From: Blasia pusilla
Lineage: Eukaryota
NCBI GenBank assembly: GCA_050084515.1
Contig: CM114271.1
Span: forward strand, 4,588,001 to 4,652,000
Length of the DNA stretch: 64,000 nucleotides
Direction: 5' to 3'
The translations under genes and the position numbers were made by a program. Positions 29,718-62,800 of the stretch are shown piece after piece (within the stretch, counting starts at the first letter, position 1; every line of letters begins with the position of its first letter). The notes below the pieces were generated by a model that made no database searches, was not told the DNA's origin, and worked only from the letters and a program-made list of their open reading frames with translations.

Positions 29718-29721
<4 letters not shown>

Positions 29722-30273
29722 TAAACCTATACCACTCTCCTAACAAAAGGCTTGGGTTACTCATAAGGTAAGGAGGATCAAAGCTTTGCATGGTAGCCTA
29801 TGCATGTAGGCAAGTCATCTCCTTGGCTCTTGACTTGTTGTAGGGGATCAAGAGTCACTTCTCAAAGTGGAAATCCAACTACACTCTCAATAGAAATTGA
29901 TACGAAATATTAAGTTTCTCTACATAACTCCAAATGAGCCAAAACAAAGAGGAAACATACTCTCTCAAGTTACATAAGGCCTCAATAAGTGATACTCGAC
30001 CTCTTGAGGTTATCCTCCAATATCTTTGAAGCCGCTCTTCCAACACTAGTCAAGCTATCCTAAAAGACATGACACTATGTATAAAAAAATAGAAAGGAAG
30101 TTGGTTCATTTGACCATCAATTGATTGCCATCCTAGTTGATAGGCAACTATCTCCTCCCAAAAATCAAGCATGAACACAAAGAGATACGATATTGTACCT
30201 TAAGTCCCTACCAACACATCTTATAACTTTATCAATATCATTAACGTACGTGTGCATACCATTGCATTACCAG

Positions 30274-30695
30274 AAAGGTTGCATGGAAACGGATATGTCC
30301 ACGGACATACCCAAAGCGTTCCCCGCCCGGGTTTTTTCGGTGCCCGATGGACCATGCGAGGACCGTGCAAGTTGATGACGCGAGAAAAAGTGGAGGCTCA
30401 CATTAAGGAAGGCGGGTAGGGATCGAGTGGGCATGCATACTATGAGCCCTTGCCTTGCCTCCATCAAGCTTGCGTGCGACCCGCATCGATTGCGGCTAGC
30501 AAGTGCGGGCTTAAGGACGGCTCAGTGTGAGCTACAAAATTGGTGACAAGAACGGGTGACAGGTTCCTAAACTAGATCCGCGTTGTCCAGGCCCAGGTCT
30601 ACATTGTGGATGGGATGGGCTCGTCTGCATGCCACATGGATATGTCCGTCCTAGGGGCAGACATAAGTCCATGGATATGTCTCCATGCAACCTAG
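30274..30695. mobile_element. non-autonomous TIR element (MITE, hAT-like ends)
   Basis: aggttgcatgga ... tccatgcaacct inverted termini; ggatatgtcc subterminal motifs; flanks attaccag/actactac may be a decayed 8-bp TSD. Confidence 0.7.
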
Positions 30696-34022: not shown

Positions 34023-37000
34023 CATACATACACAATTTAGATTGAGTCTCAAAGACTCAATCTCCCTCGGGTGCCTCTTTTCCAAGCCTTGACCAACCCC
34101 AGAAGTTGCTTGCTTAAACCACAGTACCGTGGTTAATTCCTCAAGGTTACATCCCTTAGCTCAAATTTAAAACGCGCATCATGATTAGTTCCTAGTTCAA
34201 GGACTTGAGCGGATAGAGAGGGAGAGTGTCCCCCCTATAGATATTTTTGGGTTTCTTTGGGAAAACCTTAGTTTCCCCATTGACCCTTGGTTAGGCATTG
34301 GTTGTTTGATAGAGGAAGTGCCTTTGATAAAGTAAAAGATTGGGGAACCTCAGCTTTTAGCCCATCAGTTTCATCACATGGATTAAACTCAATCCCATCT
34401 CCTTTAGGTTCTGTCACTCTCACTATGTCCTAAGTCATCACGCCAACAACCTCAACCTACGCCATATTGAAAATAAATTCCATACTAATGAAATCCACTC
34501 TCATATCATGATGTAAGGTGGAGGTTGAAGCTAAAGTATATGCCCTTAGCTTCATATCCATTTTTGGTAGACCAAGGTATCCACCTTCAAGGTAGACCTC
34601 ATGGTGTATAACAACATCACATCCCAAACTCTCTAACCTAGTTTTCAATCTAGAAACCCATACTTATACTTCATGGTGTATGCCTCTATCACTCCATAAG
34701 GAGCAATGATCAATCATTGCATGCGCATCAATTCCTCCCAAACTTCTGAAGACTCTCAGCCTAGCTCCGCTGAAATTCCTAAATATTGACTCTTAATATT
34801 TTAGGTTTATATGCCCTATAATTTCCGCCCCATCTCTCCAAAAAAACTCATTTTTGTGTTGAAACTAGGTAGCCCCTACTACTCAAGTCTATGCCACCCC
34901 ACTCTTGTCAATCTTCCTCTAGTTCCTAATTTTTTTGGTGTGGATATATATAGTTGTTGTCACTACTCCATCATACACCTTACAACCACTATTGGTGACG
35001 TTATATGGAGCCCAATAAACCATTCATTCATCAATCTTTATTTCGTGTAAAGATCAAAACTCACGATAGACATCCATAATAGATCCCTCCAAATTTCAGA
35101 ACAAAACCTTCCACAACATGCAAAGGGTTGAACTATGTTGGATGTCATATCTCTTGGAAATCATACCATATGTCAAAATCTTAGATGAAATCATCTAAGA
35201 TACTAAATCAAAAGTGCCTACTACATCTGAAAAGTGTCGCTTGCCCCTAGGCCTCCTATAGGCTCATGTCCTCCATATCTCTCCACATGATATGATGACA
35301 CTCACTTTGTCTAAAATCTTGTCACTAGATTTGTTTTCCAATGATGAGAAGATAGCCAAAGATGGAAGCCTACGTGGTTCCTCACTTAAATCCCATCCTC
35401 TCAATATCTTACTCCACTCTGAGTAACTCCTCCACTACCACTCAAACTACCCCACTCTTCCAAATCCTAGAAGAACATCGTGGTGACAATCCTACCTCAT
35501 ATGCTCAAGCACTCAAACTCACCATTGGCCTCTCACACTCCTCACTAGCTCACATATGGTAATGATAATCCTATGATGATAAACTTACCTTAAGCCTCTC
35601 ATACTAACTCACGTAAGCTACCAATAATATTGAATAATACACAAGAATCCTACTTAGGAAACCGCCCTATATCCAAAACCATGCTATACACAAAAGGTAT
35701 ATGCACTTGACACCCTCACTACACAAATGTAACATAAGCTCTACTTGATATATACCCAGCACCCTCAATGACAAGAGACAAATATGGGAATAGGACTCGA
35801 ATGAGTAACCTAAACATGCACCTTATCGATCACTCCTCTGCAAGGACAAAAATGATTGCATTGTATAGTATAGCTATCTCCGCACCATGATAACCTTTTC
35901 AACCAGCAAGTTGAGCCCCTCATCTGTAGATGTTGACTACTTGTTGGCATCAACATGTGTATTACCACCTCCAACATTGTGTGGCGGACCGTTAGTGGAG
36001 ATCACTCATCTCAACACATGTTTGCACTATATTAACTAGTCGAGAACTCACACAGGGTTGGATAATCTTATATCCATGCACCACCAAATGCGTTGCATGG
36101 TGGCAAAATCACAAGTCATAGAAAACCATCACTAACAATTTCGAGGAAAAATTGTGAGTTCCATGAAGTCCAAGTGGATCACTTAGAAACCAATCTATGT
36201 GAGTCACTCTCTAGTCAGTCTCTTATCATGTTGGAGGCTACATGGTTGGCCTTACCACCATGGTAGATCTACTACCATGTTGGTTGCTCTAACCTTGTTG
36301 CTATTTGTCTATATTGTTATTGCTTTAACTACTACATATTGGCATGCCTTCGATGACGATATAGCCCACCCCTCCAAAGTAGCTACCTTGTCATCCCCAA
36401 CTTCATCCGCCTGTTGTGCAACTCTTTCCACTCGATTGCTACTACTAAAAATGGGTTGCGCTTCCTTGCACAACGTTTTGAACAAAAAAACACAACAACC
36501 TAAACACATCCAATGGGCTTTGCAATAAGGCAACTCAGGTTATCCTGGCCACATTCACACAAGGAATTCTCCTTTTCCCCTCATGCATCTTGCATCACAC
36601 ATCAAATTCCATTGTCAAATCTACATATCATCATCAAGTTATTTCCACCCTTCATCACAAGGGAATCCATACTCTAATTGTCAAGTTCCTACCAAACCTT
36701 CGAACGAGGAGTGCTTCCTAGGCTCAACATGAGATAATGACTCTTGAAAGACGTCTCCTCGCTTGTTAAACCTATGGGAAGAGCCAAAATGGCTCTCCTC
36801 CTAAACCTTCATAGACAATTTATTGGATGAGCATTGATTCAATCAAAGGGTCACCTGATCCAAAATAGGAAAGAAAGGGATTTGTCAAAAAATATTGATG
36901 GTAACAAAATGTGACCAACCTCATTGGAGCACTTAAGACAAAGTTATGTCCGAACAACCCTCTAACCCCCACACCTTCAACAAGGTAGAACTCTACCTAT

Positions 37001-41513: not shown

Positions 41514-44500
41514 TCATGCTTGCAACTCCTCCAACACTTTGCAAACCTCTACAGAAAGACCTGCATTCATGAGAATCCATATCCAAGCTGTTTGCTGCTC
41601 GGATAGCTTGTCTCGAGGTCCCTTCACCTCAACAAGTTTTGCCTCTCCTTGTCTGATGCTCTTTGTGTTAGAAGCAGTCTCCCCCATGACGATGCCTGCC
41701 GGTTCTCCAACTTGACATGAGAGCAGGCCACTTTCAGTAGCAGAGCTCCTTTCTTTTGAGATACAACTGCACTTCGAGCAAACATCCTCATTTTTACTGG
41801 GTTCTGAGAGATCGTCTTTTGCATCTTGTGTGCGCCAGAGAAGAAGATCTGGCATGCCTCCAGTCCAGCCAGCATGGTCTTCTGCCAGCAGCCTGCACAC
41901 ATGTGAGAGCCCTGGACCTCCGACACATGACCCAATGGTTTGAAGATCAGCCAGTGAGTGACGCTCCCAGTTAACACCAGTGCACAGAGTTCCATAGTTT
42001 TCATTCCATGTTTTAGCAAGAAGCTCTGCAGTGTTCCCAGCCGCAATTGTGGCAAGCCTTGTCTCAATCAAACTTTGTCTCGCCGAGAAGAATAACTCGG
42101 TGTTGAGATCCAGGGGTGCTGTCTGCAGTAGACATCTCTAGTCAGCAAGTAAATTTCAATAGAAATGGCAACTTCTCACTCTATTTACTAAACTTCGCAG
42201 TGAAAAAATCCAAAACAAAGATCCAGTCAATCAGTGAGCTTAAGGACTCTCCACCACACACTGCATATAATTGGCTGACATTCACCTGAATAGATGTCTC
42301 TTGAAACTGGCAGGAAATGTGGGAGGACAATGAGTTAGAACCTGGAAAGAAGTCTGGAAGACGTCTGGAACATCTGCAAATAGCACATCCCACATCAGGA
42401 GACCAAAAAAGGTCATCCACACACCACCTTCACAATGTATGCCTTGCCAGCGTCCACCCTCCTCACTGGCATAGTACTGCAGAGCCAGCTCTTCCACTCC
42501 ACATTGCTGCTCATCATAGCCATAGAATCGACTCTTAATCCCAGCTGTGCAATTGAGTGGTCTGCCCCGGATCTGCACCTGCCAGATTAGAAGTATGTCA
42601 GCCAGGGCATCTTCTGGAAGCAAGCATACTTGATGGTTGAACGATGCAACAAATGGGCAGTATCTAGGGACGACTTTGCACAACGATCAAGGTATCAAGA
42701 CACAATTCTTCAAAGTGCTGGGGACCCCCTTAAACTAGTATTTATCAGTGATTTTAGGTAACTTTCAGCTATCATTGGGCGGCTTGAACACTCGGCGTTG
42801 TCTTATAACTTGTACAGGAGAGACCTCAATGATGAATGCCTAGAGTCAATTATTGGATGTACAGCATTCCCCAACTCTGTCCCAACTCTGGGTTGATGAG
42901 GATGCAAGTATGACCCAAAATTATGGTCAAAGAATTGATCCTTACCTCTTTGCAGTTTCTTTTCAAAGCTTCAGCATATGGAGGTTTCTTCCACCTTCGA
43001 GGTGGCTTTCCCAGACGAACCACCCGTCTTTGAAGGGCAACGCGATCACCTCCACGAATCCAAGGATCATCAACTCCTACTTCAGCAACCCGTAAGCTTT
43101 CTTCTTTGCAACCAAGGTGGTCTAAATTGATTGACAGCCTCACTGTCCAATAACCCCACCTTCCTGATCGCATCTTAGAGTTCAACAACTGTCTCAAGAC
43201 CTGAACTGCTTCTTTGTATCTGTTAAACCATTGAGATGGATTCACACGAAAGAATTTAATTCAAGTTACATGAAGCAGCTATCTGCATCAAAACTATCTG
43301 CATCAAATAGTAAAACTCCAAGAAATTACCAGTGATGCATGGAACAAATTGAAATACGGGCAGCCATACCTTCTTTCTCGTTCTAAAATAGAGATACCCA
43401 GTGTACAGACATTCCTATACACATATGAGGCAGAAAAGCGAGCAAGAAATGTAGGTGTTTGGTTCGCAGCTTCGTGATCTGCTTCCTCGCAGCTTATATA
43501 ATCTCGTGCTCTTTTTAGGAATTTCAATGCACCTTCGATGTCATTCTTCTCTAGAGCCATGTCCATCCCCTGAGCTACCTCTAGAGCCTGTCAAAACCAG
43601 CCCGAGGTTTTCAATCATGGTGTAATTGGAAAAGGTATTTTAACACACATAGAGGAGTCCTACCAAAAACCCATAGACAGAAAGTACTGTGCACGAGTTG
43701 ACTGCATGTTGATGGCATTACCCAGCTTGCTACTAGAATAGCACGGGTGTTTCAAGTGTTCGAGTAGAAGATTGTATAATTGAAGCTATACTCTCACACA
43801 GAATAAACCATGATCCCTAGGGAACGGCCACATGCATCAACTATTGATGGATACACAACAAGCAGATGAAGATGCCCTCATAGAGAAACCCAAGAGAGTC
43901 ATGGAAAAGGGACCACCTCTTCATAGGCGACAAGGACCTCATGAGTTTCGAAAACATGTCGTGACCTCCAGCATTTATACCGTGGATACTTCATCAATCC
44001 CATGTCGACCAACAGAAAAGTCGAGAGATTTCTGTCTCCATTCAGAAAGAAGAGTCTCTATACATGGCTCCAACGCTCGAGACTTCAGCTTCTTATCAAG
44101 CTTTCAATAAGAGAGCTTACATTGTTATCTATTCAGTAAAAACAGAAACACTCAACACAAAAGAAGGGGAAGAGAATCTTGTGTGGAAAGAGCATCTGAT
44201 AAAGTTCAAAATACCATACAGCCTTAATCTACAAGGAGAAGAGTAATAATAATAATAATAATCATATACTTGTGTTCTTCCGTGACAATACCAATCAAGT
44301 CTCAAGTATTCAGGATTCATCTTTCCACCCAAGGAAACATCAATAATATGCCACTGTAAAAATCATGAACCAGATTCAGATTACACACCTGCAGCCGCCA
44401 CAACAAAAAATCTGCTGTATTGGAAACACGGATGCAACTTCCAGTGATGTCAATGAGCATCTGCATGAATGTTGAATCACTACCGACAAACAAACAGAAA

Positions 44501-47500
44501 ATAAAGGTTAGAGGCATTTGGTTCAAGTTTCCGATAAACAATCAGAATACATTGTGACACTGCTCCAGTACAAGCCCAGTTCTAAGACTTTAAAAGACCT
44601 AGGAAACAAAGAGGCAGTGACAGGAATGTCACCTGGCGCCTGACTTGTCAGAAGTAGACTGTCTCTTCATTCCAGCGGAGACTGCCAGGCTTATGAGTTC
44701 CTCCCTCCTAGTTGCAGCAGCCTCAGTCTTTTTCTGCAGGGATTGATTACATGAATAGAAACCCAGCAGCTGAAAGATTTCTCTTAAGTGCTTCCGCAGC
44801 ATTACACCCTTACAAATCTTGCTCACAAAGTGGAAGTGCGCAACAGGGCCTCCCATGGAATCAATAACATTGAATATAGGATGTGCTAAAGATGATTCTC
44901 GATATCATTGTTAAGTGACTTCTTGACACTAACCATAGTCTTGCAAACCCAACTTCACCAACTTTATTTGCAAGGGTGATGTAAAAATATAGTTCCAATT
45001 TGGGATAGTTCAGGTGCACTGACTAAAGACCTGTGGAAACAAAGGTGAAAGGAAGTGCTACCTTCAAAGAAGAAGCACAAACTAGTTGCCTCAGCTCTGG
45101 CACATTAAGAACCTCAATTCTTCTCCGCAGTGCAATTTCAGACGCTTCGTCTGGGTTGCATGCAGTAGTTATGTAACCAGCAGCTGCACGCAAGGATACT
45201 TTCAATTAGAAAGAAAAACTCTCTTCCACCAAAATCTGGATGCTAAATTACTTGATCTCATCCACACTGTACATTCAAACTCTTCCAGTAATAAGATACA
45301 AGTCTGGTTGACAGACTATCCGGTACATCTTGCTCAATTTAACATTTTTCTATCGATCAACTTTGGCATGCACCATTTGTTTGTCAGTACATCACAGAAG
45401 CTTTCAGTTTTGTCATTCAATGAGCCTTTTCAAGAAAACTTTTCATACAGCTCATTGTTCCAGTATTTGTTTATACACCCCACTCAATTCTTAGTGTCTC
45501 AACCTCATCAGATTGCAATGACAGAGCAGAAAAATGAATAATAAAAGCAGGTGCCTACCAATTAGCTCATCTGAGGCCGCACACACATCATCAACATCTT
45601 TGTATAGTAGACTTGAAAGACGAAACCAAGGCCCTGTGGAAGTTTTTGCACAAACTACCCACCAATTCAGGTCCCAAAAGCAATTCCTCTCATAAAGATA
45701 AAAAACACATAATATGACATTGGTTGTCATGGACAAATTGACTACTATTGTAAAAAAGATCCTGTCCATTATAGGGTCCAAAAATGCTCTAACCTACCTT
45801 TCCTCTGATAAAGACGTATGAAGAGTCTTTGAGCATCGGCCGACATGGAACTGAATGTCCCTGAAGAGAAAACAAATGAGAGAGTGAACTTGAAACATCT
45901 TTACCATGTGACAAGACCAGAAACGTTCAAACAAACTTCAAAACAAAGAACTCCTGTTGGGACTATGACTTTTTTTTGAAAGTGAGAGGAGCTCATTATG
46001 AGCCCAATGCATATTGGACACTACACTTCAATACTATCTTTTCATGCAAGCACGTTTTACAAAGAAAAATCACAGTTTTTACCTCATTACTCATCAAAGT
46101 CCACATTAAGTTTTACAGCACACGTGCAAATGCAGCCTGAAAATCTACAAAAAGTATACTGGGAACCTTGGAAGGATAAGGTCCTGAACAATTACCTAAG
46201 AAAGATTTCTCTTCGTCTTTAAATAAATGGGAGTCCCGCTCCAGAATTGTTTGTAGCATAGCCAAAAAGTTTTTTTGACACTTACTGCCAGTTGATATGA
46301 AAGAAGGTTGAAGAGAAGCATTGCTTTCACCAGCAGCAAGCACAAGCTGCTGCCAGTCATCCAGTGTCGTAAAGTCCACACCATCATCTTCACCAATCCT
46401 CTCACAGTAAAGTTTCAAAGATGCATTTCCAAAACTCTTCTCAGGAACAGCTGTCACAGACCCCTAAATCCCTCTGACAAGTCAGATACTAGATGGTCTT
46501 TAGATATTAGGCAGTACAATATCACCAAGACAAGACCAACTAGTGTATCTATATCGACATGGCAGTAAGAAAGGCAAGAGTTTACAATGGCCTCACAGAT
46601 GCATACCCAAACTTGTAAGCAGCCCTTGTCAAGGAGACCTGAAAGATGACGACTAATTTCTCTGGGCAAGTGACCTAATGCAGGACCACTACGAGTTTCC
46701 AGTGGCACAATCTGATGCATGAAGAACAAAAGACAGTATCAGCATCTCAGAATGTAAGCAAAGCAAGTGCAGACACTGAAACATCCAAGATAACTACGAC
46801 AAATATCAAACAAGGACTGATCCAGATAGACCCATGTCCACACCAACCTTGATCGAATTCGAGTCTTTGGGATTATCTGGTTCTCTCAAAACAGTAACCT
46901 GCAATCCCTCCTTGCAAACTACCTTTCTATTGAATCTCCGGCCCACAATTTTTGTTTCTAACACTCCAACCAGTGCAGAATTTGTCACTTGATCTGATGA
47001 TGCAGTCATAGCCACGTGACCTCTTCCATTCCTTTGAGGCATGTCAACCTTGCCCTTCTCCTCAGACTCAAGAAAGCTTGTTCCATAAATATTCTCTATA
47101 CCGTCTGCATGTGTATCGATCTGCTTCCCATCACAACTCTCTGTAATTTTCACTTTACAGGACAGGCTATGGCAGAGACAGGCACATGCAATCTTTGCTG
47201 CTTGATAGACAGATGAGCATACTTCAGGGGTATTGAAGTTCGCAGATATGCATGCTTTGAGTTCAGGCTCTTCAGACTTTATCTGAAACCTGAGTCCACC
47301 ATTGCAGTTCAATACACGCCCCAATTGCTCTTTACTCTGAGCACAGTCCAGTCTCTCATTGTGATCAAATTCCTGTTTTAGTTGAGCCTTGGTGTGGCGA
47401 TTGTGACTACCCAGAGCACAGACAACTTCAAGCCCAGGTCGCTCTAGATCTACACTGCCCTCTGATTTATCATTCAGCAAAATCTCCTGGTTCTCTTTCT

Positions 47501-48614
47501 TAATATTCTCGCCAATCTGCATGCCTGGGGCTTTATTCATGTACTTGTTAGTCCCAGTAGGACTGCCAAATTGCGACAATGTAAGCTGCTTGCACTTTTG
47601 CCTCTTACCTTTCAGCCCCCCTTGTAAGCAAAGATCTGTAATCCCACCAATGACGGTGTCAAGGACTGTCTGGTACTTAAGTGATTGATACAAGCTGGAT
47701 TCCACAGTGGTCATAACCTATCCACACTCCTCATGACGCCAACCATTCTGTCTCATGATCAAAAGATTCTGAATAACACCATGCTCCCAAAATGTTATGA
47801 TGTAGATTGATAGCATTGACACCACTATACATCTCAGGCTTTCAAGATTCCACCTCCACCTCCACCCCCTTCCTCTCCCTCTCCCTCAATTCCACCCCAT
47901 TAATTGAGTCCTCAGATCAAACCTGGGTGTCATCAGATACAGTCCATACATACTATTATGCCAATGCTTATGAAAGCAGACCCAATAACATGAGATTCAA
48001 GAAGGCTAATCGAGCTGACCAAGATGACTATTTATTGCAGAGTCGCCGCCTCTCATACTCTTGGAGCAAATGGGACACCGAACCCATTCCATGGAGCTGA
48101 CCTGCTTACAAACCCCCAAACCATCCTGTTGAGGAGTGCAAATGTTCTCCTTGAGTGTGAAAATGCTTTCCACATCACCAGCTTTCTTCACATTGATCTC
48201 TTTGTCATAATTTGCAGGGTTTGCGGGAAATGGAATCTCCATATTTTCCCCGGTACTCCACGTACTGGAAGTCACTGCCGAGGAAAACTTGACCTGGAAC
48301 GCATGAAAAAAGAAGTTCAAAATCAAGTTTTGGTTCAAATACATCACTAGCATCCGTGCTTTTCTCTCAATCTTTCAAATCTGTTGATTAAAGTTTCCCA
48401 TGACATTAGCCATTAATGGTTACAAAATTTATCCAGCATGATTAAACAAGTTATCCCATGCAAACAGAAGCAGTTCACATACACTTGAAAGGATTTCCTT
48501 CTGCTCCACACCAGAAGGAGCCTTTCTATCGCCGGGAGACAAAGCAGACAGAGACAGATTGCGCCGCTTGCCCACGAGTTGAACCAATGTTTCATGCCCT
48601 CTCAAGGAGGACAT
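41514..48614 (-). CDS. FAN1: Fanconi-associated nuclease 1 (UBZ, HIRAN, SAP-like, TPR, VRR-NUC), ~1165 aa. Exons: 48483-48614, 48020-48293, 46848-47635, 46607-46711, 46196-46463, 45798-45860, 45559-45633, 45062-45183, 44633-44733, 44389-44479, 43917-44057, 43370-43587, 42946-43219, 42342-42578, 41514-42122
   Basis: All 14 introns are GT-AG with consistent phases. Motifs: CPIC..INSHLDLCL (UBZ4), TKIVGRRF..LREPDNPKDSN..GHLPR (HIRAN), RLYQRKGPWFR, VEELALQYY, GMPDLLLW..LVEVKGPRDKLSEQQ (PD-(D/E)xK). An alternative in-frame ATG lies at 48638. Confidence 0.95.
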
Positions 48615-51601
48615 GGCAGGACCCTCTCCTCTCCTCATGTCTAAGCTTGTCTGGTCAAAAAGCTCTTTTTGCTGCACTGATTCCGACTACTCCTTCAGTC
48701 ACCAATTCAGAACCTCCACCGCCCTTATCTCAGCCAGAGCGTCACCTGACCCCCAAGGCTCCTCCTCTACGCCTCGTGAGTTCAGGGGTAACAAGTATTA
48801 TAGATTCGACATCCCAAGTTCCTCCTTTCCAGACTCCTCCTCTCATCCTGGACTTCATCCGAGTGTTCCTTCACACGAAACGCACGATATGAGCCAGGCG
48901 CCCATGAAGACCCATCGCCTCATAGAGATCCCGGGATCGGAGGGAGATAAATAAATTATCATGTCAGCGTTTCAATCAATCCTACGAGACATTCAGAACA
49001 TCGTCCGCCGCATTCCGTGCCTCAATTCAAGTAATCTTTACGCACACTCTGATTCAGAATCTGCTTAACTCCACGTTGCGCCTGTGACCTGATCACTTGC
49101 ACACAATCAAATCAAACAATACAGGTCATCTACGCCATTCTCTCTCTTCACTTGGTCAGGTTGTACTTCAACTGATATAAGATCCAAAGAAATCTCCGGA
49201 TCAACTCTCCCTTACAGTTGGCGTCCCCTACCTAAGGCATAGATGACTCAATTTCGAGAGACATGTACGATTTGTGTAACTTACTTGGGTCAAGAATTTG
49301 GAAAAAAATTCCAGACCTTCACCGAAAAAACAAATCTCCTTGAGAACCAAAACAGAAATGTTTGAAATCTGGATGAAGGTGCCTGTCACATATATGGAAG
49401 GGGTCCCATAGGAGTGGTTTAGGGTCTAATTCTAAATTATCTCTCTGTAACCCTGTCTGTGCTGTGACTCTCTTGCTTGATCGGCATGCTTTGGTGCTGC
49501 AAGTATTGTAATTCCACGTCACACTGCCCTCTTGGGTAATCTGCGGCCAAAACCTCAGTTCATTCATTCTCTTTCACTCACCATCACCTTTCCTATTGCA
49601 ATTACCACGATCACATCAGCCTAGGGTTCTCTATCTCTTCCAAGGACTTGCCCTCACCGTCTCTGATCTCATGCTAGAAAGAACCACGTTCAGATCGCTA
49701 AATTCTTACATAGGTATGTGAAGGCTAGAGAAGTCACCCGGAACAGACGAGCACGTAAGCCCCCTTTGGTGGTGCGCTGTCTGTGCTCTTCGATTGTTGC
49801 ACACTTCGCTAATCGAAAAGTCCCCTGTGACAACTTAATTCCTAGCACCTCACTTTGCGCGTTGGATTTCGTATATACTGCTCGTCTTAGCATGCTCTGT
49901 TGTCAACATTTTGTGTATTTGTGGAAATGAAGCCCCCTGACTCTCTCGGGTCCCCTCGTGGACAACTAATCACGTCATTCGTTCTGTGTATACTTGTGAG
50001 TTCCCTGATCTCTTCCAAGTCACTTCATCCGTACCTCTGAGTCTCATCCCCGGAGTAACGAAGCTCGATTAATTCGTTCTCAACTTTCCACACCTGCGCC
50101 AATTCGACTAATCTCCTCGAGTATTCTCCGCTTCAGAATCTCCCTCGTCCCTCCACACATTATACTCCAAGGAAGTTCGGGGCTCCATCCATCCTCTCCA
50201 TCTCTCTCTATACATAACAAATCAATTATCTCATTCATTCATTCTCTCTCTCGTCTGCGGAAAGAAACACGACGGTGTTGATGCTTCCCACCTAATGACG
50301 CAGTTTCAAATTCGCGCTCCTCGTCCTCTTCACTGTTGCAGATCTTTGCCACATGAGCCAGTTTCTTCGGGAAGACTGCCATCTTAATTGTCAACAGCTT
50401 CTCGGAGAAGATTCTCATGTTTTACAAGCTCCATGAAACTAGTATGCGGCCAGAGTAGTATGACTAAGGAAGGTTTATTAGTGTAATTAATTACATAAAT
50501 GGATTAGATTCGGGGTGAAAGTTATTTGAAGTTTATTAAATGGATATGAATGGTAATTTGATGCATTTGATAGCAGTGATTAAATTTATTGGATCATGAA
50601 TAATAAAAATATTGGATGGACATGAATAATAATTTAAGGGATCATGTTCTACTTGAAATAGTAGAGTCTCATAAGTGAGCATTGGTTGGGTGTAGAACAC
50701 TAGAGTCTGATAATAATTAGGCAGATGCAAGCTGGTATGTTGTGAATGAGTGCAAGTGGTTCCTTTACCTTGACCATGAAGTGTACCAACAGTTGGAGAA
50801 TTTATTTATGTGTGATCTTACATGTATGAGTGTGAAACTAAAGTGAATTTCAATATAGCTTGAAATGAAACTGACACTAAATTCTCATGTACCTCAAGAG
50901 CAAATAGAGCTAAAGTAATGAACAGGATCAAACATCGTAGATATGAGTACTTTTACTAAGTTGAAAAGTAGCATGCCTACATAATCTGCAGATTCATGTT
51001 CAAAGATAGCTCTACCTGCTATCAGAAATATCAATTCCTTTGAGCAATGTAGAGGAGTTAAAACTTTTTAAATCAGGAGCCAATATCTGAGAATGTGATT
51101 GAAATTCTCAATGTGGAATCAATACAAACTTGACAGAAGATTTGAAGTAAAAATTCTGCCATGAGAATACCATGGAACTAAGGCTATCCCATAAGCGGTC
51201 TTAGATCTTTAAAAAACACATACATGTAGTAGTGGTACATACACACTGAATTAATGTGAAGAACTAACTCCTCAGCATGGACTGAATTACAAGAAGTTGA
51301 AGCTTAAGTCTAGGATCATCAACAACTAAAGGAGCAACATCTTTGGAGAACTCCTTAAACTTATCTCTTGTTGCACTTAAATTTTCCTTTGTCATCTGAA
51401 TCTTCTGGAGTTTGTTCTCATTCTCTTCACATGCATTGTCCAACATGTCTTGTAGAGTTGAAATCTCTCTTGACAACTGATCTGTTCTATTCTCTGTATC
51501 ACTAAGTGCCCTGGAAATGTTGTGGTAAACATTTAGTGGAACTGATGGCTGCCTGAATGTGTGGTGTAGCTGACTTGGAGGACCAAGATCTAAATGAATG
51601 T

Positions 51602-54600
51602 TGTCATGTCTTTTAGGATAGATCAGTGAGATCTAATAGAGTGCTTTCATGAGTAGAAGAGGACACGCTCAGTAGGACGGGGATGACCTCTTGAGGCCCC
51701 GGGAAACCTGAGAGAATAGGTTTCCCCTTTGTTTCGGCTCATTTAGAGCCATATTGAAGAACTTACTATTTCAGTAAGTACCATTTTGAGTATATGATCG
51801 ACTTTCTATTTTTGGTAAGTGGCCCTTGACTTCCTACATCAGGTCAAGAGCCAAGGAGGTAACTTGGGAGCATTGGTTACCATGGAGAGAGCTTGGGAGA
51901 GGGGAGAGGTATACCTCAAGGAGAGAGAGAGCTTGAAATCTCATTCTCTCTTTGTTGAACCTCTTGGCACGAGGCGGCGCAGTTATGGTCCCTTGCCTTC
52001 TGAGTGTAACTCAAGCCTCTCATTAGGAGAGTGGATTTGGTTTGACATTGGGAGAGACCTGTGAGAGTGCACACATGTGAGAACTATGGTGTTGTGAGAG
52101 AGATTGGATCTTACTTTAAAAAGAGAGAATTGAGTGAGTGAGAGAGCTTATGGGGGAGCTCGCTCGTTGCTCGATGTTTGGTGAAGGTTGGGGGACCGTG
52201 TTCCCCGCTTCATGGCTCATGGGAGTGCTCACCGGAGCAAGAGTCGTGCGAGTTTGCTGTTTTGCTTTGCTGATTTTTTGTACGGGAGAGTGGCACACGG
52301 AAGTGCTGCCCAATTTTTGATAGGAATTGAGTATGGGGGCGGATTACTCCATGTCGGTGCTTTCGTGAGCACCATGTAGCTTGCTGATTTTTGTTCTCAT
52401 AGGTTTTACATTTTCGTTGGGAGAAATCAGCGCGGAAGCGCTGCCAAATTTTGTGTAGGAGAAAGAGATATTGGGTTTTACGACAGTCCCTGTCAATTTT
52501 TATTGGAATGTCTGATTCCAAATATTTTTTGACGCCGTCGTAGATCGTGAAGCTCTGCATGTTGTGCAACAAATGATGCGCAATTTGGAGTTGCGAGCAA
52601 AACATTATGGTCACTCTTGCAAAATTGCCATTGCTAGGCGATTTTTAGGGTTAAATTGTTCAAACCCTAAACCAACCATCGCGCCGGCGGCGGCTGTTGC
52701 CATCACAATCATCATCTACGGTCCGCCATCAATGGTCAACCATCACCGTCAATGGTCTGATGTCACCATCAATGGTCAACGATCCACCGTCGGCCGCTGC
52801 CGCCGCCTAGCGTTGCTCAGAGCCGAGTTCGGCCGTTGTCCACCCTTTGGTTGCCATTGCTGCCATTACAGAGTGGAGGGTCTTCCACGACCACTGTTGA
52901 TTCTTTGACTTGCGCCGCCATCACGTACTTTGGTTTGGCTGCCACCGTCATCGCAGTTTCTTCATCAACCATGTCACATCTGAGTAGCCGATAGGCCGAG
53001 ATCTATCGTGGATAGGGCGTAAGAGCCAGCGGACTATCTTGAGTGTAACTTTGTCCCATGGTGTCGGATGAAGTTGAGGATAGGTTCATTGTGTCAGGAA
53101 CGTCGTTTTTGACAACTTTTATGTTGAGGTCTTTCACAACCGGGTGACTTGTTGACCAAGTCACACGCCCTTGGTAACCTATGCGCGCAAGTTACCAAGG
53201 GGAGGGCTATTTTTAGGGGAAGAGCCTTTTGGCTCTTCCCAACCCTATATAAGAGAGGAAGATGGCTTTCCTAAGCCATATTTCTCATGTTTGGCCATTG
53301 GAGCACCTCTCTTGTATGTGTGTGAGATAGGACTAGGGTGCTAGCATCCGGATTCCCTGATAGCACAGGGTGGACGAGGCTTGATATGCCGATGTAGATT
53401 GAGGAGTGGAGTTTTAGGCCGGGTGTGTCGTTTTTACTACTCTTTATTTTTACATGAGAAAGATGTCAGGGGGCTGGTGGGAATTTGTTGTTTGTAGGTA
53501 GGCAAGCGAGTTGCCTTGGTCGGCAGCCCGTGGAGACGTTGGTTGGCGTCGTATTTGTCATTTTTCGGTTTTGAAGGCCGTGGGCGGAAGCGCTGTCCGT
53601 TTTTCTCATATTTTGCTCGTACGGATTGACGTGGGACAGCAGCCGAGTGTAGTGTGCAGTGGGGCGGCAGGTGTACACGAGTGAGGGTGTCGGGAGAGAG
53701 AAGAAAAGGGCATGTTTGGGTCTTTCAGCCGCCGGGGGGCTATCAAGTAAAGACCGCTAGGTTAGGTCGCGAAGGCTAGGGTTAGGGCGCGGCGGACGGG
53801 CGGCGACGCAGCGCTTCGAACGTGGTAGCACAGTCCGATATGGTACCATAGTTGGCGGGAGTGACGTGGTAAAGTTGGACGTAGTCAGAAGGGAAGACAT
53901 GGTTGAGAGCCGACCAGGGTGAGTCAGATTACATACCGCGTGTGGGGATGGACGGAGAGGTTTGCGCAACATGATGTTTTTGGGGCGCGACAGGGCATTG
54001 CGAGAGTTGACGATGGAGAGGCAGTGCACATGATGCCGACAGTTTGTCCGCATCTGTTGACAGGAGGATCTACGTATTGGTCGAGGAGAGTGTTGTGTTG
54101 CGGAGGTTGTCATATCACGTGGAGGAGTGCATGTTGACGGTGCAGCAGGTTGGAGGGCGTGATCAGGTTATCCATTCGAGTCCCTTTTCCCGCACTTGTC
54201 GTGTGTGATTGAGAGTGCTGGGTATCGGGTAGTAGCTGGTGCTAGGTGGGTGCAGTGATGGTGACGAGTGTAGATTCTATTCATGTGTAGCATGTTGGTG
54301 GATATACGGAGGTTGCCAAGTAGGGGTCGCGTGTATGACCCGAGAGAGTGTCACTAGGTTAGGTGAGTGAGTTGGGAGGGTCATGGTGAGCCCGAGTGTT
54401 GAGTGTGCGTGAGGCCGGGTATGTCATCACGGGATTGATGTTAGCATAGGTGAGCTAGTGAGGAGTGTGGGAGACTCTTGGTGAGTCTGAGTGCTTGAGC
54501 GGGTGAGACATGGTTTGTCATCACGGCGTTCTTCCAAGGTTCGAAATAATGGGATAGTGCGAGTAGTAGTAGTGGTGTGACACAGAGTGCAGTGAGATAC

Positions 54601-57600
54601 CGAGGGGTTACCAGTGAGGAGCTACCTCGACATCCATCCGTGGTTGGATCGTCATCACTAGACATTGGGTCTGGTGACGAGATCGCAGACACAGACAGTA
54701 GTACTTGGCAGGAGATGGATGACATGGGCCATCAGGGCATGCGTCGTTTCTCGGGTGCAGTGGGCACCATCGACTTAGATGATTTTATCCAGGAGTTCGA
54801 CACGTGGTGCAACTTCCAGGAGATACGGACCCCGACACGGTTCAACCCTTTCATGGCATGAAAGGGATTGTTCCAGCACTTGGAGGGTCCTCTGATGGAT
54901 GACTACATGGAGTTTCAATCACTATATTCAGTAGAGATTGATGCCTGGAGGATGTATTGGGCTCTAGGATATGTGTCCACTAGTGGACGCGAGGCATATG
55001 ATGGGATTGTGAGAGGAGATAGATCCACACCATCATCCCAATGACTAGATGGAGAGGAGGGCAGTGAGACAAGCGATGTGGCAGAGACCTCTGGTGGTAG
55101 AGGACCACCCAGCTTCAGCCCCACAGTGGAGTTCTTCCGACAGTTGGGGAAGAGCTCCCAGGGCGTACGCACTGACAAGCTGAAGAGTCTACAGGATTTT
55201 CAGCGATGATCGGGTGAGAGTTTGAGAGAGGCATTCACACGCATGAGGAGGCTGATCATTGCTACGTATGGAGTGATTGAGGCGCAGTCAATCTAGTATT
55301 GGTACGGGGTTTTGGACGGAGAACTACGGAGGAGAGTCCGAGATGCGGTGTTGATTCACACAGCGAAGCCCACATTGAAGGTGGTTTTTGAGTTGTCTGA
55401 GCGTATTGAGCTCAACATGAGTGAGGAGCACGTAGTGACCGCTGGATTTTCTCGAGAGTTGACAGGTCCACGAGCGACGGTGACCCCACATAGCAAGCAC
55501 CAGTACCACGGGAGCGGGCCAGTGTGCCCAGAGAGCAGGGCGGGTACTGTGAGCCTATGAGGCAACGACCCGTACCTACATATGTTGCCCAGCAGGGACC
55601 GATGTGGTCTTGCTCTATATTCAGTATTGGTGGCGAGGCATGCAGACTGACGTTCAGCAATTTGTTGCTAGATGCATGGTGTGTGATCGAGTTTGAGCAG
55701 CATTCAATGCTCCAACTCCATAGTTGCATCCACTTCCGATCATAGGTTTAGGTTATAGATGGAGTTTGGATTTTGCAGGACCTTTGCCTTTGATGGAGCG
55801 CCATAGTCGTTATGAGTTGGTGATGGTCGAGCACTTCTCAAAGTGGATAGAGTTGGTTGCATTTCTTGACAAAGCAAGTGAGGGAGTAGCGTATGCCTTC
55901 CTAGATCGAGTGCTGAGTCATTACGGCGCACCAACTGAGGTATTGACAGACCAGGATACAGAGTTCGGCGGGGAGTTTCAGGCCTTGTGTGACCAAGCAC
56001 TAATCGACCACGACACTACTTTGCGAGATCATTGTGAGGCGGATGGACTAGTGGAGCGGTTTGTGCAGACGATGAAGAGAGGACTATGCAAGTATGGCTT
56101 GCAGATAGGTCACCTAGGAGATGTGGACCTTCAGTTACCGTGGTTGGCGATGGGATACAAATTCAGCATGCAGGCATCCTTAGCATATTTCTCACCGTAC
56201 TTGTTGCTTTATGGCCGAGAACCAGATTTACCTGCGGCCATTCGTCGAGATGTTGGTGAGGTGTTGAACCCTGATGACCCTGATCTATGGATGAAAGCAT
56301 ATTCTTAGAGGGCTAAGTTGTTTTGGAGAGTGATGCCCATGGCGTTTGAGAACTTGGCGATTGCCCAACATCGGGATACGTTGAGGTATGGGACTATTCG
56401 GGGAGGTGGTTATCGATCTACTATCCGGAGGTTTCATTAGGGAGACTATGTCTACTTGCAGCAGAGGACACCCACGATATTGGATGTGACTGCAAGGCGC
56501 ACCATCTTGAGAGTGCGTAAGGTTTTGCCATCCGATGTTCTCTTGTTGGAGGGACACGATGGTATGGTTTGGAAGGACCATGTGCATAACTGTGCGTCAT
56601 GTCATCTTTCAAACACTAACAATACAGTTGATCCAAGCCTAGCAATAGTTCATGGAGGCTTGTGGTGTATGTTGTGTGGTTCCGCCCGTGGTGCAACCAC
56701 TATGCTAGTCTGAGATGGGTGTTCGAGAGGATGGCATATGGCATGTTTGACGCCACCTCTCACTAGGGTTCCTCATGGATGATGGATGTGTCCCAAATGT
56801 ACATAAAGTAGGTAGTTCTACATTCTGACTTGTGTCTGTGAGATGGATGACAAAAAGGCGACTAACGATGGGGCCACATGAGCATCCTTCCTTCTTGCTC
56901 TTAGCGTCCGAGAGATGTATGTCATGGTAGGTAGGGATAGATGGCTATCTGGAGTTAGAGGGACCTAACCACCAACAGGGAGGATGATTGGAGATATTTT
57001 GGTACTTCTTATCTCATTGTTTGGATGCCATGAGTTAGCATGGGATTGTGCGTGTTTGTGTGTGTGTTCGGTGACAATGATATATATTGTGTAGCGATGT
57101 GTATGCCCACGACAACTATCACGTCTTTTAGGATAGATCGGTGAGATTTAGTAGAGCGCCTTCGTGAGTAGTGGAGGACATGCTCAACAGGTCGGGGATG
57201 ATGTGCTGAGGCCCCAATAAACTTGAGAGAGTAGGTTTCCCCTTCGTTTTGGCTCATTTGGAGCCATATTGAGGAATTTACTATTTTAGATAAGTACTAT
57301 TTTGAATATATGATCAACTTTCTAATTTTGGTAAGTGGACCTTGACCTCCTACATCAAGTCAAGAACCAAGGAGGTGACTTGGGAGCATAGATTACCATG
57401 GAGAGAGCTTGGGAGAGGGGAAGGGTATACCTCAAGGAGAGAGAGCTTGAGAGCTCATTCTCTCTTTGTTGAACCTCTTAGCACGAGGCGGCGGAGCTAT
57501 GGTCCTTTGCCTTCTAAGTGTAACCGAAGCCTCTCATTTGGAGAGTGGGTTTGGTTTGACATTGAGAGAGACATGTGAGAGTGCACACATGTGAGAACTA

Positions 57601-57759
57601 TGGTGTTGTGAGAGAGATTGGATCTTATTTTATTGGAGATATTTTGGTACTTCTTGTCTCGTTGTTTGGATGCCATGAGTTAGCATGGAATCGTGTGTGT
57701 TTGTGTGTGTATTCGATGACAACGATGTATGTTGTGTAGCGATGTGTATACGCACGACA
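51602..57759 (+). mobile_element. Gypsy-type insertion (decayed gag ~54577-55500, integrase ~55724-56600, PHD finger 56666-56806; protease/RT/RNase H absent) with A1..B1-A2-B2 repeats
   Basis: TG at 51602, CA at 57759, TSD atgt/atat; integrase WSLDFAGPLP..VLTDQDTEF..DGLVER; A repeats 51602-52117 and 57117-57631; B repeats 56987-57114 and 57632-57759. Confidence 0.88.
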
Positions 57760-58109
57760 ATATCCACATTGATGTCCTCTTGTGTACTTGCATGAGATCC
57801 TGATGTGTTGTAATTCGGCCTTCTTGATGGCTTGCGTGATCTCACATGGTGAATCTGAATAGAACGAACAAAAATTTGTGTTAGAAAGGGTGCTCTAAAA
57901 CACATGTGGATTTACTACATACTTACAAAAATTCTAGAGATGATAGGTATTGTAATGAAAATCTGATAGATTGAACACTTAATCTGCAAAGAAACTAAAA
58001 TATGAAATGTTGACTAAAATACATGATTATACCAATAATGCCAAATATTGAGAATTGCACAAGTACAAATTGAGACTATACCAACAGTATAGCAAAGTGG
58101 GTAAATTTT

Positions 58110-58185
58110 CACTATGCATACGTATATACATCTAATCTTTCAAGGTCCAGTTTGAAAGATTAGATGTATATAGGTATGCATAGTG
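58110..58185. repeat. 34-bp inverted repeat (1 mismatch, 8-nt loop)
   Basis: cactatgcatacgtatatacatctaatctttcaa-ggtccagt-ttgaaagattagatgtatataggtatgcatagtg. Confidence 0.95.
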
Positions 58186-59879
58186 TACCGGTATAAATGA
58201 AACAACTACAACATGAAGATGCTTGAATTTTTGCTGTAGTGAATATGCCTAATATCAATCACTTAAAATGACACAAAGAGAAAGTCGTGTAGTTCATTTT
58301 GAATTGAAAATACATGCATGCACAACCGAATGTAATAGCAAGGTTCTTGGATGATCAATCAGAACATAAGAAAGGAAGTGAAAATCTATATATATAAGCG
58401 GTATAGTCCGGAGGAGACACTTGATGATTCAACACAATATCATAGTGTATCATAAGATCTCAGTAAGAAGACATGGTTCAAGTGGCAAAATTCTATGAAT
58501 AATGGAGTAGTGAAGACTGAAAGTGTATGATATTGTCTTGAGAGGCACTAGTTGAGCATGACATCTTCTGCCTGCAAGAAGAACATGTCACATTACAATC
58601 ATGATGAAACACCAGGAATGAACTAAACAAGAGCTGAAATGAATGTTTTAAAAAGAAACATGTATGTCAAATTTGCAAATTCTAAAGAACATAAAACACA
58701 AGAAGTTGAAGTGAACCTACTTGCTCATGTGCTATGCGCATTTGTGCTTTTTTTGTGAAGTAACTATCCCACTAGAATCGTAGGATGGACCTGGAGTAGA
58801 TTTGTCACTTGGGAAGTCATCAATAATGATTGTATTAGCTTGAGTAGTGGCTCGAACAGAGTTTCTTGCAGATGTAGTGGTTGGTTGTAATGGAGTTGGT
58901 GCAATTTCATCAAGATCTGGTGGAGTCGGTAGATTGTGTGGATCATCAAGGTTAATACGCAATGGCTCAAAGTCAGGAAGCTGACCGGCTTCTTTAGCTG
59001 ATTTCATATGTTCCAAAAGGTGATTTGCCTTGACTGAGTTTAGATCAAACAACATACTTAATGGTAGATGCATCTCATGTTTGAATGTGCAGAGTTGATC
59101 CAATCTGATCCCCCCCCCCAAGACTACACTAAACAACCTAGCACCGTCCTTACGTGTCAATATAGTTTCTTTGAAATCTACATTCTTGAACCTCGGTGCT
59201 TCTTTCTGGATTCCTAAGAATCAAAGCAATAAGGCTAACATTAATAATTGAAGAGTTCAACTGTAATAGTAAAAAGCAACTGAGATGAAAAAAAATGATA
59301 GTCTACCTGTTGCACGTCCATCCTTATTGATGCGCCTGAATTTAGAGTCCCAAATTTGGCCTTGACCAATCAAGGTTTGAATTTTTCGTCTTATAACTCC
59401 ATGTTCCCAGAACGGTGGCTGGTATCCTAGGTTGTCTAAGTACTTCATCTGGTTTTCAGTGCGAGTTGTGAAATGTGGACGTATATCATGCTACTGTGAA
59501 TTTATGTCCTCCAATATCATGCTCGCAAAGTCCAGATAAGAACTTGGAACCTACAATACTATGTAAGATTATTATAAAGTACATATTCTAAGAAACAAAC
59601 CAGAAAGTTGAACTAGATTACGTGTTGGGATTGAACTTTAGTGTGGCGTGGAGATAGTGGTCGCTCGGGCACAACCACTGTGGGATTAGTCTCGTGCTCA
59701 TAGAGTGGAAGACCTTGTCCAACTTGCGATGTGTTCAATATGTAGGCAACCTGACTTGAATGTCGTGACCCTCATCCTCTAGATGGGTTGGCCCAAGAAG
59801 ACATGTTGTTCTAAATGCAACAAAGAAGTGTGTTTGAGAGTTTGAAATATTTCTAGAACATTGTAATGACTTTGAAATC

Positions 59880-62800
59880 GGATGGCTCTAGCATACCAAA
59901 AATCCTCAGATTTTCTCTAGACTTCACACGTGATAACATAACATAGGCAAGTCCTAGTGCAAAAACTGATCTAATGACAAGGAGACAACGCCCAACTACA
60001 ATACATCCCTGAATTTATGTCCCGTGATAGCATACCCAATAATAAGTGGAAAGATATTTTTCATTTACTTTTTGTCAGAGTCCTACTTGAGAGTCGCAAA
60101 CTTTGTCCTTGAAATTGTAACAAGCTTGTCGTTAGATAAAATTCTAACTAAAATACTCACTAGTTCGTCATGTTTGTACAGTAGATCAGACACAATCCCC
60201 AAAGATCCATTGGATGATTGTAATTTCATGTTTATATTACAAGTGAGCACAACTTTACAGTGAAGTGCAAGAAATGGCAATTGGTGGAAAGTGTCATCTG
60301 CTAGCCAAGTAGCAAATGCTAATTCATGAGGTGCATATGACTTGACATGAATTTGAACAATGGAGGCATCTCCAAATAAACGTCTTAATGTCACGAGATT
60401 GAACAATGCAACATCTTCACAATGGGTGCAAATGATTGTTGTATCAGCATGTATAAAGTCTGCAACTTCATTCTTAGAAACAAAACAATTACCTAAACAT
60501 GCCATTATTTGTTCGTTAGATGGTGGAGCAATTCTTATGGTTAACAGAAACTCTAAGTATTCTCTATCTTTATGTTGCCTAATTGGAATGAATTGTGGTA
60601 GCTTTAACATGAAGCCTAACAGCTATAATGCCAGTTGTGGCAGTCAAAAGAGGACACACATCTACAGATTTCTAGTAAGAATACATATAGGATATGAAGA
60701 ATTTTTTTCCACATCCGGGTGGACCTTTGAGAATTACAAGTCTGAATTTCCGAGTGGATAATTGTGAGAATAATAGCTGATGTTCATCATTCAGTAGGGT
60801 AATGTCTAAAAGTTCAGATGGAGTGTCATCAAGGTATGTAAGTGTTGTGGGATGGTCTGAAGGTGGTGATAAAATCTCATGAATGTCTAATTCAAATTGA
60901 GGTCTGAGAAGGTATGTAGGTGTTGTGGGATGGTCTAAAGGTGGTGATAAAATCTCATGAATGTCTAATTCAAATTGAGGTCTGAGAAGGTATGTAGGTG
61001 TTGTGGGATGGTCTGAAGGTGGTGATAAAATCTCATGAATGTCTAATTCAAATTGAGGTCTGAGAACATCAAGAGTTTTAGCAAGTATTTCTCTTGTGTG
61101 AACAGTAATCCATATGTTTCCAAATGCATGATTTTTAATAAGGGCTTGGACATCATCTAGACTTGTAATAATATCTTTGTAAGCACATTCATGAAGGTAT
61201 GTCCACAATGCATTATCAGACGACATTAAAGTGGACTCAGAACGAAATGGAACCTCATATGTCAAGGTCATATAGAAGAATTCATTCCATTGATATAAAG
61301 GGTGGAACTCTATGACTCTAACAATTCTTTCTGTACTACACACTATTTTACCTAGATTGTCTATGCCAAATACATTTTTCAACTTGCTAGGATATGATTT
61401 GAACGATTCATATTGTGATCAGTATTCTATGAAAGTGAGGAACTCAAGCTCTAAAGTTCTTTTTGAATAAATAATTGAGGGATGTATGTATGGAACTGAA
61501 GCATTCTTATATAATGAATTTCTTCTACTTGGTGGATTACTGTCTATGTAGTGAACGGCTTGTGATTTGTATATAATTGGAATTTGCATCGATGTAAGGG
61601 AAGCCTCGGTTGAGGACACTGAATGATTCAATACTACTCCTAATACAAGCTTCAACTTCATCTCATCTAAAGATCCAAGACCCAAACAGCGAGTTGTATT
61701 AGTGTCTATGTCAAGAGATCCACTTGGCTCCGATTTTAAAGCATATTTAAGCAGATAGAATGATCAGTCAGTATTGGTAACTCACTGAATTTTCATGTGA
61801 GCCCCCCCATAAGAGAAGTATAAGTGGATGATATGGAATCACGTTGCGGTGGTGGAGGGATGGCCTAAAGTAAGTCCATCTTATAGTTTTTGGATCATTG
61901 AAGGGTGTTGTCTTAAGATTTGGACTGATAGGAAAACCTAACCAACAATCCGGTTTCTTGTTTCTTTTTCTCAAAATACAAACATTATCCTTGCATCTAT
62001 GTAATTTTTTACTTACTACATAATCAAACATAATACTCACCGTGTTGAGTCTCTTCTCTGTAGCCAAAGCATTTAATCGTGTATGTGGTTTTGAGGGAAT
62101 GTAACAGCAAGAATCTGTGGATCGGAAAGAATAAATTGAAAATGGAATGTTTGTAGGCGAGCTGAAGTGTGGAAAATTTGGGCACATTTTGAGGGTACGT
62201 CACACCATGTAAAGTCTTTTTTAAATTGTACCAGTAAGTTCTGTATATCAACAATCTCAATCCAATGTGTGGGTGAGGCTTCATCGGAGGTTAGTGTCAA
62301 GAAAAAGTGGGGCATGCCCCATTTATGTACCATTTCTTTTAGGTCTTTGAGATGCCTTCTGTGCCAAGAAGGACTACCGAGTAATTACGGGCTAATGGAA
62401 TATTTAGATAAATGCTTGTATAAGTCTTCTTCTTTTAAGGTTGGCTTATCTTTCCTAAGCTTGTTGAGTTCTCTATCTAGTATGAAGGTCCTACTTGCTG
62501 AGCATAGAGCAATAGACTATCATAATTTTTACATTAGTAGAGTGTACGGTTTGTAGAGAGAAAAGATATTGAGCGATTGTCTAGATTTGTTTCGTATGTA
62601 GTCGGAAAATGTGGAATGACCAGTATAAAACCCACGTAAGAAGGGAAATAAAAATGGAAATAAAGTTGTCTCTAATGTAAATTTGGAATCTAAAGAACTT
62701 CCAGATGAATTAGCAAGAAGAGTAGTGCGCAAACTTGAGGATGACCTCAGCAAAAGGCTACCACTGTCAAATATGTCAGTAGATTTTCTTCGTTTCATAG

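Follow-up and report, generated by a model that had tools for sequence, protein, structure and literature searches.

We examined a window of 64,000 nucleotides of Blasia pusilla DNA (contig CM114271.1, positions 4,588,001 to 4,652,000 of the forward strand), in which positions 51602..57759 are occupied by a Gypsy-type retroelement with a DDE integrase, whose direct repeats are split instead of forming two ordinary long terminal repeats (LTRs). The block starts with TGTCA at 51602, ends with CGACA at 57759 and is flanked by atgt and atat, in agreement with a preliminary description of this DNA made from its letters alone. Comparison of the repeats by self-alignment also gave the arrangement proposed there: repeat A alone (A1) at the left end and, at the right end, repeat B (B1), the 2-nt spacer ac, a second A (A2) and a second B (B2). 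This copy combines sequences of two families, F1 and F2, and its parts are as follows (TSD, target-site duplication; PPT, polypurine tract).

51598..51601, + strand: left TSD, atgt; single copy in the empty paralogous sites L222/L223
51602..52117 (right border approximate), + strand: A1, the left integrated end (TGTCA), corresponding to the 3' part of the reverse-transcription LTR, family F1
51908..51915, + strand: TATA-like motif in A1 (TATATA in other copies), putative promoter
51943..51953, + strand: putative transcript 5' end and self-primer, complementary to the site after A1
52118..52133, + strand: predicted self-priming primer-binding site, adjoining A1, slightly decayed in this copy
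52134..52971, + strand: F1 5' non-coding region, split by the nested insertion
52972..55618, + strand: left part of a nested F2 element, its right part lost; A' at 52972-53451, TATA at 53246-53252, self-primer motif at 53280-53290, primer site at 53452-53464
about 54550-55560, + strand: broken gag of F2
55619..56803, + strand: F1 integrase (zinc-finger end, rve core, GPY/F-like motif) with a C-terminal PHD finger, broken by stops
56977..56986, + strand: PPT, decayed (a G-run in other copies), directly 5' of B1
56987..57114, + strand: B1, corresponding to the 5' part of the reverse-transcription LTR, ends GACA
57115..57116, + strand: spacer ac (GC elsewhere, giving the palindrome GACA-GC-TGTC), putative internal, uncut integrase attachment site
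57117..57631, + strand: A2, delimited by self-comparison
57631..57632, + strand: A2/B2 seam, blunt form, putative end-joined LTR-LTR junction
57632..57759, + strand: B2, the right integrated end (GACA)
57760..57763, + strand: right TSD, atat

Both paralogous target loci examined (L222 and L223) are empty and their left and right flanks overlap by exactly 4 bp, so the ends of the block are true insertion ends, as the preliminary description had argued; a minus-strand frame, open over 111 amino acids (aa) to the left of the insertion and 50 aa to its right, is in register across one TSD. The target is multi-copy (17 matches; flanks 51260-51601 and 57760-59250). Its minus-strand open frame belongs to no assigned family and is possibly another mobile element; a Pfam scan of the long open frames beside the retroelement gave no match.

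A1 and A2 are 88.8% identical (Kimura two-parameter distance, K2P, 0.12) and B1 and B2 90.3% (K2P 0.10), which bears out the impression that the two pairs are similarly diverged. The remark that A1 and A2 share indels absent from another copy at 14681 fits the gap openings, 2 in the A1/A2 alignment against 7 between A2 and that copy; when only substitutions are counted, the distance from A2 to A1 (0.109) is no smaller than that from A2 to the 14681 copy (0.108). The latter is a second F1 copy (14681-18758, + strand; A1, 5' region and gag, then truncated), lying beside a reverse-strand reverse transcriptase (RT) fragment at 14187-14673. Internally, the copy at 51602 passes from the left part of F1 (to 52971) to the left part of F2 (from 52972) and then to the F1 integrase (from 55619), whose DDE nature is confirmed by Pfam (rve, E 1.7e-9); it has no protease (PR), methyltransferase, RT or RNase H (RH). 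The TGTCAC at 52972 is a genuine left end, that of F2, a family whose gag is only 41-45% identical to the F1 gag. Conversely, TGTCATGG at 56920, which had been named together with it as a possible sign of a nested element, sits within a 3' non-coding region common to other copies up to the PPT and is not an end. The window copy is an old, dead, internally deleted chimera with a nested F2 fragment.

The A…B-nn-A-B layout (nn, the spacer) is nevertheless a real feature of the whole family and of its clade. In each genome search the best 40 matches were scored. For the B-A junction, which might have been unique to this locus, all 40 scored matches (the best 40 of 4240 candidates) were near full length. 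All 30 junction loci fetched run from the integrase region through B into the start of A, and in 27 of them B also follows A; the remaining three are one tandem int-B-A-5'region (int, the internal region with the integrase), one truncated and one inverted element. A tandem element with one B-nn-A unit in common (int-B-A-5'region…int-B-A-B) was seen at L022/L048/L108 (G000:C5:21779723-21790956). The left-end search found B before A in 0 of 30 loci and a TGTCAC-like end on unique flanks in 29 of 30. A search with B only, which is unbiased for context, returned among 30 loci 20 int-B-nn-A(-B), 6 solo A-B, 3 int-B/flank and 1 locus of another family. Thirty-one sites were fetched at length and 16 of them yielded both ends, the others being truncated, nested or out of range; in the 17 end-paired copies that result when the window copy is added, the 4-bp TSD is exact in 9, has one mismatch in 6 and finds no match in 2. 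The genome-wide searches with A and B thus repeat the A..B-A-B order at independent insertions with their own TSDs, and the recurrence of the same ends at dozens of them upholds the idea of a split-repeat architecture of a DDE-integrase Gypsy element as opposed to a chance arrangement. A1 is nearer to the A2 of its own element than to that of other copies (0.067 versus 0.095; Wilcoxon test, p=8e-5), and the spread of A divergence within elements, from 0.6% to 11%, indicates that the family was active over a long span.

The F2 family is laid out as F1, with int-B'-nn-A' right ends in 6 of 30 loci, B' upstream in none of the 18 left ends followed by a primer site, and exact TSDs in two end-paired copies and three solos. 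Two F2 insertions 40 kb apart, inverted and with the same flank (L182 and L184, G000:C5), represent a segmental duplication and are not independent. Departures from the layout were also seen. In three short elements (L066, L078, L080), A and a portion of the 5' region run straight into B at its very first base, with perfect TSDs, and two of the int-B/flank copies, once traced to their left ends, are A-int-B elements with perfect TSDs (L159/L212, L154/L218); a third A-int-B copy (E5) has no TSD match.

The longer copies (some 10 kb) code for a Gag that has a zinc knuckle and for a protease-like motif, a C5 cytosine methyltransferase, RT, RH, the DDE integrase and a PHD finger. Pfam finds RVT_1, RT_RNaseH, Integrase_H2C2 and rve in this succession, which is the PR-RT-RH-integrase order of Ty3/Gypsy, with PR called from a D-S-G-type motif alone and matched by no Pfam family. 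The methyltransferase, located between PR and RT, matches PF00145 in L083 (E 4e-5, above the cut-off); the best solved structures are DNMT3B and DNMT3A (E 1e-4), with DRM2 weaker, and a first look at the 390-Mb genome gave 13,832 candidates for its region. Ten copies with longer open methyltransferase frames were considered as separate young families and rejected as such, their recognisable ends being F1-type and most being disrupted by nesting. Related integrases occur in Calypogeia and Riccia (the best, 83-89%), Sphagnum, Closterium, Klebsormidium nitens (52-56%) and Tetrabaena, several of them with PF00145 in the same polyprotein; judged by the closest named relatives, the host would probably be a bryophyte.

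As to class, the DDE integrase, the TG…CA ends and a TSD within the 4-6 bp range of Ty3/Gypsy elements are all present; two complete LTRs at the integrated ends are not, the left end being A only, and, unlike in Ty3/Gypsy, the PPT and the primer site abut repeat ends that are not TG/CA. An identity with DIRS elements was rejected, since no tyrosine recombinase family of Pfam matched any of 78 stop-free segments (including 69 of the 71 six-frame segments of at least 95 aa from four stretches), a search whose sensitivity is limited by the decay of the copies. DIRS, PAT and Ngaro elements have, to our knowledge, no integrase-type TSD, and here 4-bp TSDs with at most one mismatch were found in 15 of 17 copies. 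The element would work like a self-priming Gypsy in reverse transcription, is devoid of paired LTRs when integrated, and is not a DIRS member.

The signals for reverse transcription are placed accordingly. A G-rich PPT stands directly 5' of B1 in the 69 F1 rows of the int-B type and in all 6 F2 right ends, and the stretch directly 3' of A1 is the complement of a segment of A that lies some 30 nt below the TATA motif. Complementarity is perfect over 16-17 nt in 8 of the 29 scorable F1 left ends (16 nt in 7, 17 nt in 1; range 7-17) and over 16 nt in an outside copy, L301; in the window it extends over 11 nt for F1 and 10 nt for F2, lengths that none of 200 shuffles each could reach. The F2 complement lies at the same position below TATA but has a different sequence (14 nt in most copies). 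A tRNA-type primer site, with a TGG start after A1, was absent from all 46 rows inspected. With the PPT before B1 and the primer site after A1, the LTR made by the standard pathway is B-GC-A, the outer ends of which are without TG/CA signal; the TG and CA ends stand back to back inside it, around the 2-nt spacer. Among 62 scored spacers, AC was found in 32, GC in 9, GT in 8, AT in 5, AG in 3 and others in 5; AC, GT and AT would be transition products of GC, and the GACA-GC-TGTC palindrome is intact in several outside contigs. Three raw RNA-seq runs sharing the species label gave sense, 3'-biased coverage from diverged copies, with 75 reads across the A/primer site and 31 across the A/B seam. 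In L003 and L141, the sequence beyond A and the primer site is that of the region above the self-primer motif, in reverse complement; this inverted continuation suggests a template switch at the primer pairing.

We then considered the A2/B2 seam, where 41 of 64 cases are a blunt join of the predicted ends of the complementary DNA (cDNA), 17 have one extra A, the base with which the primer site begins, and 6 are aberrant. The aberrant seams include a full 13-nt primer-site copy (L015) and four deletions, most of them at short shared sequence (microhomology); an inverted fill-in is seen in F1 (L153), and an F2 seam (L190) retains 8 nt of the primer site. At the PPT/B1 border no such deletions or foreign insertions were seen by eye in 69 rows, and only the length of the G-run varies. 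We mapped the seam on a tree of 51 A copies (aberrant seams excluded) from whose construction it had been left out; this tree is largely star-like, with 5 well-supported branches. The extra-A state needs 14 changes, against a mean of 12.4 in shuffled data, and all of 500 shuffles gave a count as low. A control base located 4 nt ahead of the seam needs 3 changes (shuffled 15.2) and another, 14 nt beyond it, needs 6 (shuffled 11.7); for neither did any of 500 shuffles come as low. The low counts of the control bases indicate that the tree has power. The seam, unlike its neighbouring bases, is thus not inherited on this tree and behaves like a joint remade at each insertion. The preliminary description had recognised an end-to-start junction of circle type inside the element. 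These patterns place such a junction most likely at A2/B2, and not at B1-ac-A2, which would be the internal integrase attachment site.

The layout extends beyond this genome. A scan of metagenome contigs with the integrase alignment kept 80 loci, of which 56 of the longer ones were examined and 53 had 1200 bases after the integrase. A short repeat pair was found in 25 of the 53, and 19 of these 25 had a GACA-nn-TGTC-type junction (about 11 distinct, replicate assemblies being merged by eye). L253, L273 and L301 have the full A…B-A-B with a 4-bp TSD, although L273 and L301 share flanks and count once. Some distant relatives (L241, L242, L276, L283) have a longer inverted symmetry around the GC spacer, of up to about 16 bp, than the Blasia copies.

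It is probable, in our view, that the window copy is a dead member of a Gypsy-type clade whose integrated copies are circularly permuted relative to their cDNA and arise in the following way. The RNA would start in A, about 30 nt below the TATA box, and its first 13 nt or so would prime at the site just after A1, as in elements of the Tf1 kind. With plus-strand synthesis starting at the PPT before B1, the product would be a linear cDNA, B-GC-A-int-B-GC-A, bearing the LTR B-GC-A at both ends but no terminal integrase signals. The two ends would then be joined, either by host end-joining or by an end-to-end jump of the RT, which would create the A/B seam. The DDE integrase would cut GACA-GC-TGTC inside the left LTR and insert with a 4-bp stagger, yielding A-int-B-GC-A/B. 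The preference for the left site may come from the left LTR being double-stranded first, and bound by integrase, while the right LTR is still single-stranded; alternatively, the integrase might cut and insert first, the seam being closed afterwards. The short elements L066, L078 and L080 are what this mechanism would leave when a truncated cDNA is joined to the left end and cut at the left site. A more general proposition, towards which we lean only slightly, is that a green-plant clade, from algae to bryophytes, has given up the integration of cDNA ends, so that end joining is obligatory and the integrase acts as a site-specific endonuclease on an internal site.

Several points weigh against this mechanism. 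The layout, TSDs, domains, positions of the PPT and of the complementary primer site, and the seam variants with their lack of inheritance can all be read off genomic insertions, and it is from these that the circle, the cDNA end and the integrase cut are deduced. A joined circle would have two attachment (att) sites with the same surrounding 128 bp and 515 bp, and yet no copy cut at the right site (A/B-GC-A-int-B) was found among 30 F1 and 18 F2 left ends, an asymmetry that calls for an explanation. If a closed circle with two equal sites leaves no right-cut copy, then the integrase would either engage the left site before the symmetry arises or cut first. The RNA-seq runs gave no sharp RNA start or end in A; the primer-site complement is only 6 nt in L253 and 8 nt in L273; and the predominance of AC over GC among the spacers (32 versus 9 of 62) means that a perfect palindrome may not be required. 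Two of the 17 end-paired copies have no TSD match, B distances within and between elements are not significantly different (0.072 versus 0.080, p=0.16), and A and B distances are weakly correlated (rho 0.44, p=0.07). Finally, the one-base seam variant could partly be recurrent slippage, and 28 of the 53 metagenome loci have no repeat pair, although these may be collapsed, truncated or differently built.

The alternative that survives best, although we regard it as improbable, is a restoration of ends similar to that of DIRS, PAT and Ngaro elements, in which an RNA from A1 into B2 would have both its missing ends templated by the B1-A2 junction, the seam would be inherited, and the integrase would act on the restored linear ends. 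It accounts at once for the single permutation seen, the repeat order is identical to that of PAT/Ngaro and SymbioDIRS, and the seam is crossed by 31 RNA reads in the three runs. However, the two sequences brought together in the seam are exactly those marked by the PPT and the self-priming site, the neighbouring bases are inherited whereas the seam variant is not, primer-site sequence is trapped in the seams of L015 and L190, and truncated elements are joined to the exact start of B. Still harder to maintain is a free 2-LTR circle, covalently closed, whose two att sites would be cut equally often. The end-joined seam speaks for it, and the A-int-B elements with perfect TSDs (L159/L212, L154/L218) could be 1-LTR circles cut at their sole site. 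About half of the insertions should then be A/B-GC-A-int-B, against 0 of 30 F1 and 0 of 18 F2 left ends; moreover, both traced int-B/flank copies are unpermuted A-int-B, which a one-LTR circle or a later B1xB2 recombination would equally give. A one-off event at the window locus (tandem LTRs, a nested insertion or a mis-assembly) has next to no credit with us, for although an F2 element does start at 52972, as the nesting proposed in the preliminary description would have it, and the copy is chimeric, such nesting leaves the recurrent ends unexplained, and the 40 near full-length matches among the best 40 of 4240 junction candidates, the independent copies with their own TSDs and the same layout in F2 and in outside contigs refute it.

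The architecture had been put forward as possibly undescribed, but it is already in print, in one sentence, which limits the novelty: the legend of Fig. 4c in de Mendoza et al. 2018 (PMC5890265) states that the repeats of KnitGypsy-Dnmt3 of Klebsormidium nitens are arranged as in DIRS, defined as A-coding-B-A-B. As described in the accessible parts of that paper, KnitGypsy-Dnmt3 has Gypsy domains with a Dnmt3-like methyltransferase in Pol; the Blasia family shares both the repeats and a Dnmt3-like C5 methyltransferase within Pol, and in pairwise comparison its integrase shares 56% and 52% identity with two proteins of K. nitens. TSD, PPT, primer site and mechanism are not given in those parts of PMC5890265, and the Blasia genome differs by a very large expansion (the 13,832 candidates above). 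In the literature searched, which left Repbase and most subscription journals outside, we found the layout and the name KnitGypsy-Dnmt3 in this paper only, found no published explanation, and, among the papers of the one search where this was looked at, did not meet the term "permuted LTR". A streptophyte Gypsy-DNMT3 is mentioned in the accessible text of bioRxiv 10.64898/2026.05.21.726589, which gives no description of its repeats.

PAT/Ngaro and SymbioDIRS elements have the same split direct repeats, A…B-A-B, and some carry a methyltransferase; the Blasia family differs from them by its DDE integrase, protease motif, 4-bp TSDs, TG…CA ends, PPT and primer site. Tf1, Sushi and Tcn1 are Ty3/Gypsy elements with ordinary paired LTRs. 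According to the accessible parts of PMC7175516 and PMC6317226, the 5' end of their RNA is the complement of a primer site that adjoins the 5' repeat. On that account they resemble the Blasia elements in the self-complementary primer site, the absence of a tRNA-type site and the PPT before the 3' repeat, and differ in having chromodomains, whereas in Blasia the TG/CA ends are internal to the LTR and a PHD finger forms the C-terminus of the integrase. Cutting of a palindromic head-to-tail junction in closed DNA by a DDE enzyme is familiar from the circle junctions of the IS3 family. The foamy virus integrase also cleaves the palindromic LTR-LTR junction of the 2-LTR circle, as reported in the accessible parts of PMC1180852. 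The predicted Blasia cut would be alike in this respect; the cut site of the virus is, from the same source, the end-joined junction, and that of Blasia would be an inherited site inside the LTR, with the seam as a passenger. Troyka (PMC12440569), another LTR retroelement with unusual ends, was rejected as a relative, having CG…CG ends, a 3-bp TSD and no GPY/F motif, and being restricted to animals.

The rest of the window holds further traces of such elements. RT-RH, protease and gag fragments of related elements lie at 27566-30286 and 34581-35819 (- strand), and an A-like end of a further family (72% to A) at 30074. A diverged methyltransferase fragment (22795-23413, + strand), 37-49% identical to the F1 domain, probably comes from another family of the clade. 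The - strand at 41517-47717 carries an intron-containing nuclease gene with VRR-NUC (E 1e-26) and HIRAN (E 1e-4) segments, which we take to be FAN1-like from this pair of domains. At 60801-61066 a 78-bp unit is present in three copies, arranged in tandem and 98-99% alike.

LTR-finding programs expect paired LTRs. They would miss, or give wrong borders to, a family with thousands of candidate loci, and with it the presence of a Dnmt3-like methyltransferase in what appears to be a land plant. In the textbook view, LTR elements integrate a linear cDNA by its two ends, joined circles being by-products. A clade that joins its ends and cuts internally would bear on whether end-joined forms are real intermediates for DDE integrases, and also on how DIRS-like split repeats may originate without a recombinase. 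If the more general proposition above is true, the end-joined form, which other LTR elements make only as a by-product, would here lie on the main path.

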